Positions 39,706 to 46,525 of a DNA stretch of 64,000 nucleotides are shown here, one piece after another. A program made the translations under genes and the position numbers. The DNA comes from Escherichia phage LH2: the sequence record OQ378934.1; one strand, written 5' to 3'. Below the pieces are notes generated by a model. It was not told the DNA's origin and did not search any database. It saw nothing but the letters and a program-made list of their open reading frames with translations. How positions within the stretch are numbered: the first letter of the stretch is position 1; each line of letters starts with the position of its first letter.

Positions 39706-40041
39706 ATGTCTGAAGTACAACAGCTACCAATTCGTGCTGTCGGTGAATATGTTATTTTAGTTTCTGAACCTGCGCAAGCCGGTGATGAAGAAGTTACAGA
39801 ATCAGGACTTATTATTGGTAAACGTGTCCAAGGTGAAGTTCCTGAACTGTGTGTAGTTCACTCTGTTGGTCCTGATGTTCCTGAAGGTTTCTGCGAAGTT
39901 GGTGATTTGACTTCTCTTCCAGTTGGTCAAATTCGAAACGTTCCTCATCCTTTTGTAGCTCTGGGTCTTAAGCAGCCAAAAGAAATTAAACAAAAATTCG
40001 TAACCTGTCACTATAAAGCTATTCCGTGTCTTTATAAGTGA
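39706..40041 (+). CDS. 31: co-chaperonin gp31 (GroES analogue)
   Basis: 111-aa ORF (T4 gp31 is 111 aa) next to rIII. Confidence 0.9.
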
Positions 40042-40188: not shown

Positions 40189-40437
40189 ATGATTAAACAA
40201 TTACAACACGCTCTTGAACTGCAACGAAACGCATGGAATAATGGTCACGAAAACTATGGCGCATCTATTGATGTTGAAGCCGAAGCTCTTGAAATCCTGC
40301 GTTATTTCAAACATCTGAATCCTGCTCAAACTGCATTAGCCGCTGAGCTTCAGGAAAAAGATGAACTTAAATATGCTAAGCCTCTGGCTTCTGCCGCACG
40401 AAAAGCAGTTCGTCACTTTGTGGTAACACTGAAGTAA
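40189..40437 (+). CDS. rIII: lysis inhibition accessory protein RIII
   Basis: 82-aa ORF (T4 RIII is 82 aa) downstream of gene 31. Confidence 0.8.
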   Translation: MIKQLQHALELQRNAWNNGHENYGASIDVEAEALEILRYFKHLNPAQTALAAELQEKDELKYAKPLASAARKAVRHFVVTLK

Positions 40438-40835
40438 TTTATTGGAGAGTCACTGCCTTAGTGTGAAGTTAAAACGAGGAGCCGTCGAACTGTCTGATTA
40501 ATGATTTGCGAATCATTATAGTTTTAAGACCCCGGCAGTTTTACGGTGTACCTCTTGAATGTTATTCTTATAGCGGCAAGTGCATGCTACCCCGAGGTGA
40601 TGGCTAATCGGGAGTACGCCTCAAGGCCTATATATCCATCAGTATATATCTTATCCTCGAGAAATCGGACCCGGAACCTTTAAGCTAACGGTGTGCAACA
40701 GATAAGAGCTATAAGGTATGATGACGGGTTTATGGTTATCCTGGTCGTTAAATATTCAAAAACCTATGTTCCCCTTGAGGGCTTGCGCAGGCAATGCCAA
40801 TAAGTCCTGCATTTTCATTTAAAAGAGAATTTATA

Positions 40836-41012
40836 ATGGCAAAACAAGCTAAAGCAAAGAAAGCAGTTGAAAAGAAAGTTGGTGATTCTAAACGCGCTGG
40901 TTACAAGCGTGGGTCGAACTCTCGTATCAATCAAACTGTTGAGAAGATCATGCGCCGAGCACGTGCGGTTCTTCGAGATGATGCTTCTCGTTTTGGTAAG
41001 CAGAAAGCATAA
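40836..41012 (+). CDS. small highly basic protein (58 aa)
   Basis: MAKQAKAKKAVEKKVGDSKRAGYKRGSNSRINQTVEKIMRRARAVLRDDASRFGKQKA; strongly Lys/Arg-rich; followed by a strong terminator. Confidence 0.45.
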   Translation: MAKQAKAKKAVEKKVGDSKRAGYKRGSNSRINQTVEKIMRRARAVLRDDASRFGKQKA

Positions 41013-41017
41013 GTTAA

Positions 41018-41046
41018 GGACTCCTTCGGGAGTCCTTTTTTATTTT
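41018..41046 (+). terminator. rho-independent terminator (ggactccttcgggagtcc plus T-run)
   Basis: GC-rich hairpin followed by tttttatttt. Confidence 0.8.
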
Positions 41047-41100
41047 CCAAAGATTGCACAAAGTTGTTTACAGTATGGTTCCTTTGTGATAGTATTATCT
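41041..41100 (+). promoter_or_regulatory. T4-type early promoter (GTTTAC 41066-41071, TAGTAT -10 at 41090-41095)
   Basis: aagttGTTTACagtatggttcctttgtgaTAGTATtatcttacacaaacaaaggag. Confidence 0.6.
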
Positions 41101-41182
41101 TACACAAACAAAGGAGAATAAAATGAAAACGATTAATCGGGTTACGGTCATTGGGCTGATGTTGAAATTATAAGTATTAAAG

Positions 41183-41641
41183 ATGTCTGAATTAGAGATT
41201 AGAAGCAATTTTAGATGGCCATCATGTGCATTAAGCAATTTCGCCCAATGGCCTTTCGTTATGGATGGTATCCAATTTGGAGGTCTCGAAGGATTCCTCC
41301 AAGGATGTAAGGTGAAAAATGTTGAACACCAACGTCGTATATTTGGGTTATCTGGGCTTGCCGCCCAACAAGCTGGAAGGTCTTATGCTAGAGCTCAGGA
41401 CCGTGGCACGTTGTTCTGGCTTGGAACTCCGTTTTCAAGATACTCCTCAGCGTGGAAAGAATTATACACAAATGCATATTTTGAAGCAGCGTTCCAAAAC
41501 AAGGGCTTTCGTGATGCATTACAAGTCTCGAAAGGAAAAGTTTTGAAGCACAGCATGGCTAGTGGTCTAACAAAAGATGATACAATACTAACCGAAGCTG
41601 AATTTATTGATGTGTTAAACCTATTAAGAGACTCTCTATGA
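41183..41641 (+). CDS. NADAR (YbiA/DUF1768)-like protein, putative ADP-ribose-processing enzyme
   Basis: 152-aa ORF with the NADAR-type signature …LSNFAQWPFVMDGIQF…LEGFLQ… that parallels E. coli YbiA (…FSNFAAWPIKVDGKTW…SEHYFQAQKF). Confidence 0.55.
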   Translation: MSELEIRSNFRWPSCALSNFAQWPFVMDGIQFGGLEGFLQGCKVKNVEHQRRIFGLSGLAAQQAGRSYARAQDRGTLFWLGTPFSRYSSAWKELYTNAYFEAAFQNKGFRDALQVSKGKVLKHSMASGLTKDDTILTEAEFIDVLNLLRDSL

Positions 41642-42501
41642 AGCCTACTATTTTAACTGATATTGATGGAGTATGTTTAAGCTGGCAATCAGGTCTTCCT
41701 TATTTTGCTCAGAAATATAATCTTCCATTAGAACATATTTTAAAAATGATCCAAGATGAGAAATTTATTTCTCCGGGTAAACTCTTTAATTGTGATGAAG
41801 AACTTGGCGTCAAGTTAATTGAAAAATACAATCGTTCAGATTTTATTCGTTACTTGTCTCCGTATAAAGATGCCCTGTGTGTAATTAACAAATTAAAAGA
41901 AGATTATAATTTTGTAGCTGTTACAGCATTGGGTGATTCTATTGACGCTCTGTTAAATCGTCAATTTAATTTGAATGCTCTTTTTCCTGGTGCCTTCTCA
42001 GAAGTAATGATGTGTGGTCATGATTCTTCAAAAGAAGAGTTATTCAAAAAGGCAAAAGAGAAATATAACGTAATTTGTTATATTGACGATCTCGCTCACC
42101 ACTGTGACCACGCGAGTGAAATATTGAATGTTCCTGTTTATTGGATGGCTCGAGGAGAGCGTGACAATATTCCAAAAACTGCGCAGCGAGTTTATACATG
42201 GAATGATGTAGAAAATAAGCTTTTTTCGCCGAAGGAAAATAAAGAAAGTTTTGATAGTGAAAAAGCTATAAAAGATGTAATTGAGAAGATGGTTAAAAAC
42301 GATTCTTTTCGTTGGAACACTACCTGGAGAACTCCTGGATTTAATCCGTATAATCCATATTATACACATCCATATAATCCATATTATACACACCCGTATC
42401 ATATGAATCCATTCCATACGTGGAGTTATACTAAGCCTGGTGATGCAGGGTATTTTAATAGATTTACTAGTGGTGATAATATTTTCCAAGGAGCATTCTA
42501 A
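41638..42501 (+). CDS. HAD-superfamily hydrolase-like protein with Pro/Tyr-rich repeat tail (287 aa)
   Basis: N-terminal HAD motif I ILTDIDGV; C-terminus carries tandem PYNPYYTH repeats. Confidence 0.5.
   Translation: MKPTILTDIDGVCLSWQSGLPYFAQKYNLPLEHILKMIQDEKFISPGKLFNCDEELGVKLIEKYNRSDFIRYLSPYKDALCVINKLKEDYNFVAVTALGDSIDALLNRQFNLNALFPGAFSEVMMCGHDSSKEELFKKAKEKYNVICYIDDLAHHCDHASEILNVPVYWMARGERDNIPKTAQRVYTWNDVENKLFSPKENKESFDSEKAIKDVIEKMVKNDSFRWNTTWRTPGFNPYNPYYTHPYNPYYTHPYHMNPFHTWSYTKPGDAGYFNRFTSGDNIFQGAF
42349..42392 (+). repeat. 24-bp tandem duplication (2 copies) encoding the PYNPYYTH repeat
   Basis: tataatccatattatacaca occurs at 42349-42368 and 42373-42392 with a 24-nt period, in frame. Confidence 0.7.
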
Positions 42502-42770
42502 TGTTTGTCGTTCACACTATTTATGAAAATGAAGGTAATACTACACGTGATTACGGTCACGTAAATCAATTTTTTAGATGCAATCCAGAATTCCGAGCTC
42601 AAAAAGACGAACGAATTTTTAAAAAATGTGTAGAGCAAGGTTTCATTTACGTCAAGCACTGGATGCAAGGAAATAAAGTTAGAACTACATATCATAAGTC
42701 TTTGCCTGAGCTTAATGATGAATTGATTTATAATAGAGCTGTAAATCAAACTCTGAAGGATGAACAATGA
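42501..42770 (+). CDS. hypothetical protein (89 aa)
   Basis: ORF immediately upstream of gene 30, overlapping neighbours (ATGA/TAATG-type coupling). Confidence 0.45.
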   Translation: MFVVHTIYENEGNTTRDYGHVNQFFRCNPEFRAQKDERIFKKCVEQGFIYVKHWMQGNKVRTTYHKSLPELNDELIYNRAVNQTLKDEQ

Positions 42771-44227
42771 TTCTTAAAATTCTGAATGAAATAGCATCTA
42801 TTGGATCAACTAAGCAGAAGCAAGCAATTCTTGAAAAGAATAAAGATAATGAATTGCTTAAACGGGTATATCGTCTGACTTATTCTCGTGGGTTACAGTA
42901 TTATATCAAGAAATGGCCTAAACCTGGTATTGCTACCCAGAGTTTTGGAATGCTGACTATTACCGATATGCTTGACTTCATTGAATTCACGTTAGCTACT
43001 CGGAAATTGACCGGAAATGCTGCAATTGAGGAATTGACTGGATATATCACCGATGGTAAAAAGGATGATGTTGAAGTTTTGCGTCGAGTGATGATGCGAG
43101 ACCTTGAATGCGGTGCTTCAGTATCTATTGCAAACAAAGTTTGGCCAGGTTTAATTCCTGAACAACCTCAAATGCTGGCAAGTTCTTATGATGAAAAAGG
43201 CATTAGTAAGAATATCAAGTTTCCAGCTTTTGCACAGTTAAAAGCAGATGGAGCTCGGTGTTTTGCTGAAGTCCGAGGTGATGAATTAGATGATGTTCGT
43301 CTTTTATCACGAGCTGGTAATGAATATCTAGGATTAGATCTTCTTAAGGAAGAGTTAATCAAAATGACTGCTGAAGCCCGCCAGATTCATCCAGAAGGTG
43401 TGTTAATTGACGGCGAATTGGTATACCATGAGCAAGTTGAAAAGGAACCAGAAGGCCTAGATTTTCTTTTTGATGCTCCTGAAATCAGTAAAGCTAAAGA
43501 GTTTGCCGAAGTAGCTGAATCTCGTACTGCTTCTAATGGAATCGCCAATAAATCTTTAAAGGGAACTATTTCAGAAAAAGAAGCCAAATGCATGAAGTTT
43601 CAGGTCTGGGATTATGTTCCGTTGGTAGAAATATACGGTCTTCCGGCGTTTCGTTTAAAATATGATGTACGTTTTTCTAAACTAGAACAAATGACATCAG
43701 GATATAATAAAGTAATTTTAATTGAAAACCAAGTAGTAAATAACCTAGATGAAGCTAAGGTAATTTATAAAAAATATATTGACCAAGGTCTTGAAGGTAT
43801 TATTCTCAAAAATACCGATGGATTGTGGGAAAATGCTCGTTCAAAAAATCTCTATAAATTTAAAGAAGTAATTGATGTTGATTTAAAAATTGTAGGAATT
43901 TATCCTCACCGTAAAGACCCTACTAAAGCAGGTGGATTTATTCTTGAATCAGAGTGTGGAAAAATTAAAGTAAATGCAGGTTCAGGCTTAAAAGATAAAG
44001 CCGGTGTAAAATCACATGAACTTGACCGTACTCGCATTATGGAAAACCAAAATTATTATATTGGAAAAATTCTAGAGTGCGAATGCAACGGCTGGTTAAA
44101 ATCTGATGGCCGCACTGATTACGTTAAATTATTTCTTCCAATTGCGATTCGTTTACGTGAAGATAAAACTAAAGCTAATACATTTGAGGATGTATTTGGT
44201 GATTTTCATGAGGTAACTGGTCTATGA
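42767..44227 (+). CDS. 30: ATP-dependent DNA ligase gp30
   Basis: 486-aa ORF (T4 ligase is 487 aa) beginning MILKILNEIASIGSTKQKQAILEKNKDNELLKRVYRLTY, with adenylation motif KADGAR. Confidence 0.95.
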   Translation: MILKILNEIASIGSTKQKQAILEKNKDNELLKRVYRLTYSRGLQYYIKKWPKPGIATQSFGMLTITDMLDFIEFTLATRKLTGNAAIEELTGYITDGKKDDVEVLRRVMMRDLECGASVSIANKVWPGLIPEQPQMLASSYDEKGISKNIKFPAFAQLKADGARCFAEVRGDELDDVRLLSRAGNEYLGLDLLKEELIKMTAEARQIHPEGVLIDGELVYHEQVEKEPEGLDFLFDAPEISKAKEFAEVAESRTASNGIANKSLKGTISEKEAKCMKFQVWDYVPLVEIYGLPAFRLKYDVRFSKLEQMTSGYNKVILIENQVVNNLDEAKVIYKKYIDQGLEGIILKNTDGLWENARSKNLYKFKEVIDVDLKIVGIYPHRKDPTKAGGFILESECGKIKVNAGSGLKDKAGVKSHELDRTRIMENQNYYIGKILECECNGWLKSDGRTDYVKLFLPIAIRLREDKTKANTFEDVFGDFHEVTGL

Positions 44228-44412
44228 AAGCTTACTTAGAAACAATTGTCATTGCTCAAAAAGAAGGTGGAGATGTTTCTACTTCTGTATCACAAATCGT
44301 TCTTGAATTTGTAGATGCATATGCTTATAATAAATTCACAGAAACATTTGATGCCTATGAAAAAGGTCCAAAGTTTGAAATATATCGTACTCTCTTACCA
44401 TTAGATTATTAA
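44224..44412 (+). CDS. hypothetical protein (62 aa)
   Basis: ORF overlapping the gene 30 stop; followed by a hairpin. Confidence 0.45.
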   Translation: MKAYLETIVIAQKEGGDVSTSVSQIVLEFVDAYAYNKFTETFDAYEKGPKFEIYRTLLPLDY

Positions 44413-44441: not shown

Positions 44442-44470
44442 GAATAAGAATAAACACTAGAGAGGATATG

Positions 44471-46525
44471 ATGGAACTCATTACAGAATTATTTGACGAA
44501 GATACTACTCTTCCGATTACAAACTTAAATCCAAAGAAGAAAATACCGCAAATTTTTTCAGTTCATGTTGATGACGCAATTGAACAACCAGGCTTTCGTT
44601 TATGTACCTATACATCTGGAGGTGATACTAACCGTGATTTAAAGATGGGCGATAAAATGATGCATATTGTTCCTTTTACATTAACTGCTAAAGGTTCAAT
44701 TGCTAAATTAAAAGGTCTCGGTCCAAGCCCAATTAATTACATCAATTCAGTTTTTACTGTTGCGATGCAAACGATGCGTCAGTATAAAATTGATGCCTGC
44801 ATGCTTCGTATTCTTAAGTCTAAAACCGCTGGTCAAGCTCGACAAATTCAAGTTATTGCTGATAGACTTATCCGCAGTCGTTCAGGTGGCAGATACGTCC
44901 TTCTTAAGGAACTCTGGGATTACGATAAAAAGTATGCATATATTCTTATACATCGCAAAAATGTATCGCTAGAAGACATTCCAGGAGTTCCGGAAATTAG
45001 TACCGAGCTCTTTACTAAAGTTGAATCGAAGGTCGGCGATGTTTATATCAATAAAGATACTGGAGCTCAAGTAACTAAAAATGAGGCAATTGCAGCATCT
45101 ATTGCGCAAGAAAATGATAAACGTTCTGACCAAGCTGTAATCGTTAAAGTTAAAATTTCCCGTAGAGCAATTGCACAAAGTCAGTCATTAGAATCTTCTA
45201 GATTTGAAACACCAATGTTTCAAAAATTTGAGGCTTCAGCGGCAGAATTAAATAAACCCGCCGACGCACCTTTAATTTCTGATGCTAACGAATTAACTGT
45301 TATTTCTACTTCAGGATTTGCATTAGAGAATGCTCTTAGCAGTGTTACAGCTGGGATGGCATTCAGAGAAGCTTCTATAATTCCTGAAGATAAAGAATCC
45401 ATTATTAATGCAGAAATAAAAAATAAAGCTTTAGAAAAATTACGAAAAGAATCTATTACTTCAATAAAAACTTTAGAAACTATTGCTTCTATCGTCGATG
45501 ATACTTTAGAAAAATATAAAGGTGCTTGGTTTGAAAGAAATATTAACAGACATTCGCATTTAAACCAAGATGCTGCAAATGAGTTAGTACAAAATTCTTG
45601 GAATGCAATAAAAACAAAGATTATTCGAAGAGAATTACGTGGATATGCTCTTACCGCTGGATGGTCATTACATCCTATAGTCGAAAATAAAGATTCATCT
45701 AAATACACACCAGCGCAAAAACGCGGAATTCGTGAATATGTAGGTTCAGGATATGTAGACATAAATAATGCTCTTTTGGGATTATATAATCCAGATGAGC
45801 GTACAAGTATTTTAACAGCACCTGAAATAGAACAAGCCATTGATAATTTAGATTCAGCCTTTAAAAATGGTGAACGATTACCAAAAGGTATTACTTTGTA
45901 TCGTTCACAACGAATGTTACCTTCAATATATGAAGCAATGGTAAAAAATCGAGTTTTTTATTTTAGAAACTTTGTGTCAACATCATTATATCCAAATATT
46001 TTTGGTACTTGGATGACTGATTCATCTGTGGGTGTTTTACCAGACGAAAAGCGTTTAAGTGTTTCTATTGATAAAACTGATGAAGGGCTTGTTAATTCTA
46101 GCGATAATTTAGTCGGAATTGGATGGGTTATTACTGGGGCTGATAAAGTCAATGTTGTTTTACCCGGTGGAAGTTTAGCGCCTTCAAATGAAATGGAAGT
46201 CATTTTGCCACGTGGATTAATGGTCAAAGTTAATAAAATAACCGATGCATCTTACAACGATGGAACAGTTAGAACTAACAACAAGCTTATTCAAGCTGAA
46301 GTTATGACCACAGAAGAACTCACCGAATCGGTAATCTATGACGGAGACCATTTAATGGAAACTGGTGAATTGGTTGCAATGACAGGTGATATTGAAATAG
46401 AAGACAGAGTTGACTTTGCATCATTTGTTTCATCAAACGTTAAACAGAAAGTAGAATCATCTCTCGGAATTATTGCGTCTTGCATAGATATTGCAAACAT
46501 GCCTTACAAGTTCGTTCAAGGATAA
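44471..46525 (+). CDS. alt: ADP-ribosyltransferase Alt
   Basis: 682-aa product from MELITELFDEDTTLPITNLNPKKKIPQIF (T4 Alt is 682 aa); the listed ORF has one extra N-terminal Met. Confidence 0.9.
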   Translation: MELITELFDEDTTLPITNLNPKKKIPQIFSVHVDDAIEQPGFRLCTYTSGGDTNRDLKMGDKMMHIVPFTLTAKGSIAKLKGLGPSPINYINSVFTVAMQTMRQYKIDACMLRILKSKTAGQARQIQVIADRLIRSRSGGRYVLLKELWDYDKKYAYILIHRKNVSLEDIPGVPEISTELFTKVESKVGDVYINKDTGAQVTKNEAIAASIAQENDKRSDQAVIVKVKISRRAIAQSQSLESSRFETPMFQKFEASAAELNKPADAPLISDANELTVISTSGFALENALSSVTAGMAFREASIIPEDKESIINAEIKNKALEKLRKESITSIKTLETIASIVDDTLEKYKGAWFERNINRHSHLNQDAANELVQNSWNAIKTKIIRRELRGYALTAGWSLHPIVENKDSSKYTPAQKRGIREYVGSGYVDINNALLGLYNPDERTSILTAPEIEQAIDNLDSAFKNGERLPKGITLYRSQRMLPSIYEAMVKNRVFYFRNFVSTSLYPNIFGTWMTDSSVGVLPDEKRLSVSIDKTDEGLVNSSDNLVGIGWVITGADKVNVVLPGGSLAPSNEMEVILPRGLMVKVNKITDASYNDGTVRTNNKLIQAEVMTTEELTESVIYDGDHLMETGELVAMTGDIEIEDRVDFASFVSSNVKQKVESSLGIIASCIDIANMPYKFVQG

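Follow-up and report, generated by a model that had tools for sequence, protein, structure and literature searches.

The NADAR proteins were described in 2023 as guanine-ADP-ribose hydrolases and as antitoxins of DarT1, in a study that also noted a His variant in the NADARs of phages (PMC11543638). One of the latter, phage T4 gp30.3, was found in 2024 to hydrolyse G-ADPr DNA in vitro while leaving T-ADPr DNA intact (PMC11125620), and in 2026 it was reported to leave C-ADPr in place as well (PMC12945103). In the meantime, a study of 2025 mapped the resistance of T-even phages to DarTG1 to gene 30.3, which was renamed adfN (anti-DarT factor NADAR) and proved both necessary and sufficient for this resistance, as shown for the T4 and T2 alleles (PMC11825919). 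According to the same work, AdfN-T4 strips ADP-ribose off DarT1-modified DNA and is impaired by the E36A and K43A mutations and by C-terminal truncation, whereas phage RB69, in which a frameshift takes away the last 15 residues of the 30.3 product, is sensitive to DarTG1 (PMC11825919). AdfN-T4 is inactive against DarTG2, and its full activity requires a further T-even factor, which is something other than DNA modification (PMC11825919).

The NADAR clade reported to be nearest to AdfN-T4 is that of the DarT1-linked antitoxin DarG1 (E. coli C7, Geobacter/Trichlorobacter lovleyi; BC4488 family) (PMC11825919). Both share the NADAR fold, the guanine-specific removal of ADP-ribose from DNA and the neutralisation of DarT1. 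They differ, however, in that T4 gp30.3 fails to rescue uninfected E. coli from DarT1 (PMC11125620, PMC11825919). Orphan NADARs that reverse DarT1 modification are also encoded by T5-like and Vequintavirinae phages (AdfN-Bas32 and AdfN-Bas60), but these belong to other NADAR clades, were independently acquired and are active in uninfected cells with no need for a T-even factor (PMC11825919). E. coli YbiA, the product of a chromosomal, LexA-linked housekeeping gene, hydrolyses G-ADPr in vitro as T4 gp30.3 does (PMC11125620) and, unlike the T4 NADAR, removes C-ADPr too (PMC12945103). Among eukaryotes, the NADAR of Phytophthora nicotianae (8bau, 189 aa) contacts ADP-ribose through a Glu and a Lys that correspond to E36 and K43 of AdfN-T4 (PMC11825919, PMC11543638), and carries a Glu (Glu125) in the last strand where the 30.3 product has a His.

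The gene considered here lies in a stretch of 64,000 nt of Escherichia phage LH2 (OQ378934.1), hereafter the window, which belongs to a T4-like (Tequatrovirus) phage and is read opposite to the T4 map orientation. Its fold, catalytic residues, enzymology and role were published between 2023 and 2026 for the near-identical T4 orthologue, so that the gene must be regarded as already characterised. An anti-defence gene has been correctly re-found from raw sequence, and there is little in it to surprise the specialist.

The 30.3 gene of LH2 and its product

The gene and the reading frame nested in it are the following:

41183..41641, plus strand: 30.3 (adfN), ATG start, 152 aa, from the ORF list and a reading of the DNA
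41319..41546, plus strand: 30.3', internal ORF in the +2 frame (75 aa), which the T4 annotation gives as an internal translation

The first-pass annotation had claimed a frame of 152 aa at 41183-41641. It was found on the plus strand with an ATG start, and both of the motifs quoted for its product are present, LSNFAQWPFVMDGIQF as residues 17-32 and LEGFLQ as residues 35-40. Judged by its sequence, this product is the orthologue of phage T4 gp30.3: the two proteins have the same length (152 aa) and are identical at 146 positions (96%) with no gaps, and the whole of the Pfam model PF08010 (Phage_30_3) is covered with an E-value of 1.1e-67 and 226.6 bits, against a cut-off of 36. The six substitutions that separate LH2 from T4 (Q49H, V82T, P89S, I104F, A114V and I125M) are conservative, and all of them fall outside the conserved columns. 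The LH2 allele is full-length and colinear with that of T4 down to the stop codon, with no frameshift of the RB69 type. At the DNA level, many T4-like phages of Escherichia and Shigella match positions 40500-42800 with identities of up to 98%. Comparison of the T4-group alleles with alleles about 84% identical to them gave a dN/dS of 0.107, a value that points to strong purifying selection on the 30.3 frame. A chance ORF at 41183..41641 was considered and is ruled out by the PF08010 match, the identity to T4 and the dN/dS; the ORFs of the minus strand beneath adfN are short (43-53 aa).

As to 30.3', its frame is open in 13 of 14 close alleles, but the synonymous divergence of 30.3 is nearly the same within the overlap (0.361) as outside it (0.394). 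This measure gives no hint that the overlap is constrained by two coding frames, bar a local dip at 30.3 codons 39-57, and the candidature of 30.3' as a selected overlapping gene finds no support.

The NADAR-type assignment proposed by the first-pass annotation was borne out at the level of sequence, profile and fold. The Pfam NADAR model (PF08719) has no direct match in LH2 30.3, even at E <= 1, and for this reason the link has to be made through profiles, intermediate sequences or structure. When 30.3 was compared with all PDB sequences by phmmer, a single chain was returned, that of E. coli YbiA (2b3w, E 0.99), with SNFAQWP...DG...LEGFLQ of 30.3 aligned to SNFAAWP...DG...SEHYFQ of YbiA and E36 facing YbiA E48. 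The two proteins thus have in common the motif SNFAxWP...DG...E(G/H)(F/Y)(L/F)Q, their overall identity being about 18-23%. A profile made from 57 homologues reached YbiA in the PDB at E 0.0037, and hhalign of the 57-homologue profile against E. coli K-12 YbiA gave a probability of 93.75% and an E-value of 1.8e-7 over residues 15-122. In addition, 7 of the 57 PF08010 family members individually match the Pfam NADAR model (best E 1.5e-7), and several carry the JGI label YbiA/DUF1768. The AlphaFold2 model of 30.3, built on the alignment of the homologues, is confident (pLDDT 93.6, pTM 0.89). In a Foldseek search of the PDB it retrieved YbiA 2b3w (E 3.9e-5, TM 0.68) and, in second place, the Phytophthora NADAR in complex with ADP-ribose (8bau, E 0.012), all further matches having E > 2. 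YbiA is hence the best structural as well as the best profile match. Sequence and model together support membership of the 30.3 product in the NADAR superfamily, with a predicted YbiA fold in which small beta-sheets flank an alpha-helical core. NCBIfam and PADLOC returned no matches for gp30.3 or gp30.2.

The catalytic Glu and Lys of the SNF...E-x-x-x-Q-x-x-K segment are present as E36 and K43 (T4 numbering). In the alignment of 57 sequences, S18, N19, F20, E36, G37, F38, Q40 and H123 do not vary and K43 reaches at least 90% conservation, while N19, E36, Q40, K43 and H123 are invariant across 158 related loci, half of them on viral contigs (79) and half on contigs of bacterial genome assemblies (79). 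H123 lies in the last strand (120-122/123, LKHS), at the place where other NADARs have a Glu or an Asp, and the hhalign alignment to YbiA, whose last-strand residue is a Glu, stops one residue before it. The phage (gp30.3) family of NADARs is recognised by a His in the last strand (PMC11543638, PMC11125620), and His123 is to be seen as a hallmark of this subfamily, not as a loss of function. The conserved acidic residues on which the first-pass annotation had made its assignment depend were accordingly recovered in part: E36 is present and invariant, and the last-strand Glu/Asp is replaced by His123.

In the AlphaFold2 model the NADAR core of LH2 30.3 begins at about residue 3, with no N-terminal extension, and the C-terminal helix (138-151) is intact. 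This helix, E36, K43 and H123 are all common to LH2 and T4. DarG1, in contrast, has an N-terminal extension and a last-strand Asp, where 30.3 is a bare core with His123.

Gene order and His-type relatives

The genes that surround adfN in the window are listed below:

39706-40041: gp31 co-chaperonin (Cpn10)
40189-40437: rIII
40794-41012: 30.9 homologue
41638..42501, plus strand: gene 30.2, a predicted HAD-superfamily hydrolase of 287 aa (HAD motifs, AlphaFold2 and Foldseek)
42501-42770: 30.1 (DUF3045)
42767-44227: DNA ligase gp30
44224-44412: alt.1
44468..46525, plus strand: alt, ADP-ribosyltransferase (PF03496, E 1.4e-34)

The order rIII–30.9–[30.3]–30.2–30.1–ligase–alt.1–alt matches that of T4, and the position of adfN between the 30.x genes and 30.2-30.1-ligase is common to both phages. 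DarG1 is encoded beside DarT1, whereas the neighbours of 30.3, namely 30.9, 30.2 (HAD fold), 30.1 (DUF3045) and the ligase, carry no DarT/ART domain.

Full-length alleles such as that of LH2 are not the only ones in circulation. In many natural T4-like phages, for example SV76, UGJNEcP4, NR1 and RPN226, the 30.3 allele is truncated or chimeric, with products of 86-126 aa (proteins P0004-P0008, P0013-P0017 and P0054), some of them fused to other T4 ORF families. By analogy with RB69, such phages would be expected to be sensitive to DarTG1.

Beyond phages, a scan in which each prokaryotic species was represented by a single genome yielded 263 loci with PF08010-type, His-bearing NADARs. Some of these are phage contigs, an example being L120 with homologues of the T4-like ligase, gp31 and 30.2, but others are chromosomal. 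In Akkermansia (L106, L111, L119 and L146) a tandem pair of His-type NADARs lies on the chromosome beside trigger factor, LemA and Mfd, and in Eubacteriales (L096, L109, L110 and L142) a chromosomal His-type NADAR has GroEL and a Na:alanine symporter as neighbours; both groups keep E36, K43 and H123. Fusion proteins were also observed. Christensenella has a GDSL-hydrolase-NADAR fusion (L095), and in Gastranaerophilales (L125, L127, L136, L158 and L159) the NADAR is followed by a C-terminal domain of about 190 aa of no assigned family, the fusion genes adjoining a conserved ORF of 200 aa and genes for large PRTase-CE (PF24390) proteins. Further fusion forms of the His-type NADAR occur at the loci L094, L121 and L128, with N-terminal extensions of 175 aa among them. 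The Gastranaerophilales fusion and its PRTase-CE neighbourhood may constitute a conflict module. Given that His-type NADARs are chromosomal in bacteria and occur in fusion proteins, the name "phage NADAR" is too narrow.

Proposed mechanism and competing explanations

The LH2 gene is the orthologue of T4 adfN, and its product would very probably act as a minimal NADAR-fold glycohydrolase, de-ADP-ribosylating DNA guanines against DarTG1. What was observed here is the identity to T4 gp30.3, the fold, the conserved catalytic residues, the intact full-length allele, the purifying selection and the synteny with T4. The enzymatic activity, the guanine specificity, the anti-DarTG1 phenotype and the dependence on a T-even factor are known from published work on the T4 protein, to which that of LH2 is 96% identical, and the LH2 allele would be expected, by analogy, to behave like that of T4. 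A role in countering a host defence that ADP-ribosylates DNA, one of the two put forward by the first-pass annotation, has indeed been demonstrated experimentally for AdfN-T4 against DarTG1 (PMC11825919; in vitro PMC11125620).

In this mechanism, AdfN would cut the N-glycosidic bond that joins ADP-ribose to the N2 of guanine in DNA and would in this way erase from the phage DNA the marks left by the host DarT1 toxin. Their removal would restore phage replication and transcription, and the DarTG1 abortive-infection system would be defeated. E36 and K43 would keep the distal ribose and the diphosphate in place, the last-strand Glu/Asp of other NADARs is replaced by H123, and the C-terminal helix would be required for full activity. 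The enzyme alone fails to explain the phenotype, because in E. coli that is not infected AdfN-T4 fails to neutralise DarT1.

The second role put forward by the first-pass annotation, which placed alt at about 3 kb, is a modulation of ADP-ribosylation directed by the phage itself. In such a reading the protein would act on the programme of Alt, ModA and ModB, for example by reversing the ADP-ribosylation or RNAylation of host proteins, and the closeness of alt would have a meaning. The distance itself was confirmed, alt starting 2.8 kb downstream of the 30.3 stop codon on the same strand, and NADARs are part of NAD/ADP-ribose networks (PMC9503650). However, only 13 of the 158 loci have an Alt homologue at 6 kb or less from the NADAR gene, all 13 being close T4 relatives, and none of the other 145, the 79 bacterial-assembly contigs among them, has one; homologues of the ligase, gp31 and 30.2 reach slightly further than Alt, to other T4-like phages. 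With Alt confined in this way, its nearness reflects conserved T4 synteny only and carries no functional signal, and a functional pairing of 30.3 with alt was rejected. The chemistry is also a mismatch for the protein targets of Alt, since every NADAR activity characterised is directed at ADP-ribose linked to a base (G, and in some cases also C) and not to protein arginine (PMC11543638, PMC12945103), and the genetics indicate DarT1 as the target (PMC11825919). A modulator of phage-directed ADP-ribosylation is therefore very improbable. Still less credit can be given to the view that 30.3 encodes a YbiA-like housekeeping N-glycosidase, one that during infection would destroy reactive intermediates of the riboflavin pathway or other nucleotide-like metabolites. 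In its favour, no solved structure is closer in sequence and fold than that of E. coli YbiA, and bacterial PF08010 relatives are found in housekeeping contexts, next to tig, mfd and groEL; yet the last-strand Glu that defines the YbiA subfamily is a His in 30.3, and for the T4 orthologue both the removal of ADP-ribose from DNA and a role against host defence are clearly established (PMC11825919).

Of another nature is the suggestion that the targets are broader, covering guanine ADP-ribosylation on RNA or by other guanine-directed ARTs (variant DarT1s, pierisin/ScARP-like toxins or secreted toxins), with DarTG1 as one target of several. Such breadth would add to the anti-DarTG1 reading and would not exclude it. 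All four NADAR families, the phage NADAR included, are reported to remove G-ADPr from DNA and RNA (PMC12945103, after earlier work); moreover, many bacteria have members of the His-type family with no DarT adjoining, and in Gastranaerophilales these members adjoin PRTase-CE proteins of conflict type. On the other hand, AdfN-T4 does not counter DarTG2 (PMC11825919), and a wider range of targets is considered possible but somewhat doubtful.

The 30.4-30.8 deletion and gene 30.2

In comparing LH2 with T4, the region immediately upstream of adfN stands out, and it is there that the first-pass annotation was right in calling the region variable: genes 30.4-30.8 are absent directly upstream of 30.3. 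The features that remain between 30.9 and adfN are these:

41016..41037, plus strand: terminator-like hairpin followed by a T-run, 3' of gene 30.9
41067..41095, plus strand: promoter-like site TTTACA-17-TAGTAT with a TG extension, from a consensus scan; it precedes 30.8 in T4
41123..41173, plus strand: remnant ORF of 16 codons, made of the first 5 codons of 30.8 and the out-of-frame 3' end of 30.4

[quoted passage not shown] The deletion is rare, as only 1 of 611 phage records matching the junction region spans it whole, the sole junction-sharing record being that of Escherichia phage CJY920 (PQ349265), with 97.7% identity. In consequence, whereas adfN comes after 30.4 in T4, in LH2 it comes after the 30.8 promoter-like site and the 16-codon remnant. 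The deletion brings the promoter-like site to about 90 nt upstream of adfN; the site is a consensus match only, the count of promoter-like matches in the region being not above that of shuffled sequences. The remnant retains the Shine-Dalgarno sequence of 30.8 and its stop codon lies 9 nt ahead of the adfN ATG, an arrangement in which it may serve as a leader ORF. An Rfam scan of 40300-41300 gave only sub-threshold terminator-type matches, the 41016..41037 hairpin among them, and no structured RNA. Should LH2 resist DarTG1, the genes 30.4-30.8 would not be the missing co-factor of AdfN.

Further upstream, between rIII and 30.9, about 155 nt (~40563-40717) are inserted in LH2 as compared with T4. 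Relatives commonly share this insertion, with 178 phage records covering at least 80% of the 40430-40800 query. No Rfam family matches it, its predicted folding is not better than that of shuffled sequence (z -0.55), and a 45-aa ORF with a GTG start found inside it (40546-40683) is of doubtful meaning.

On the other side of adfN, the start codon of gene 30.2 and the stop codon of adfN share bases (ATGA at 41638-41641). Searches of Pfam and the PDB with the gp30.2 sequence gave nothing significant, and, the sequence profiles being uninformative, the protein can be placed in the HAD superfamily only through its predicted structure. In the AlphaFold2 model, a core of pLDDT > 90 gives way at about residue 225 to a disordered tail, and Foldseek matched the model to HAD hydrolases, the most compact matches being 5'(3')-deoxyribonucleotidases with a target-normalised TM of 0.63-0.70. 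The HAD motifs are seen in the alignment as D8-x-D10, T96, K132 and D150-D151. The stop/start overlap with adfN, the HAD fold and the finding of gp30.2 homologues only in T4-like phages make gp30.2 a candidate for the missing T-even co-factor of AdfN, a speculative one to which we would give little chance. It is likewise improbable, if somewhat less remote than the two disfavoured functions discussed above, that AdfN and gp30.2 form a two-gene module with gp30.2 as the T-even factor while, separately, the 30.4-30.8 deletion has rewired adfN through an early-type promoter and a leader ORF. As matters stand, 30.2 is genomic context for adfN and not a proven functional partner. The 30.4-30.8 deletion, the 30.2 overlap and the bacterial His-type NADARs, although side observations, do bear on two questions, namely what potentiates AdfN and where it originated.

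A last observation concerns the disordered tail of gp30.2, whose length differs among relatives. In LH2 a 24-nt tandem repeat at 42344-42399 (2.3 copies, 90% matches) duplicates the sequence PYNPYYTH within this tail.
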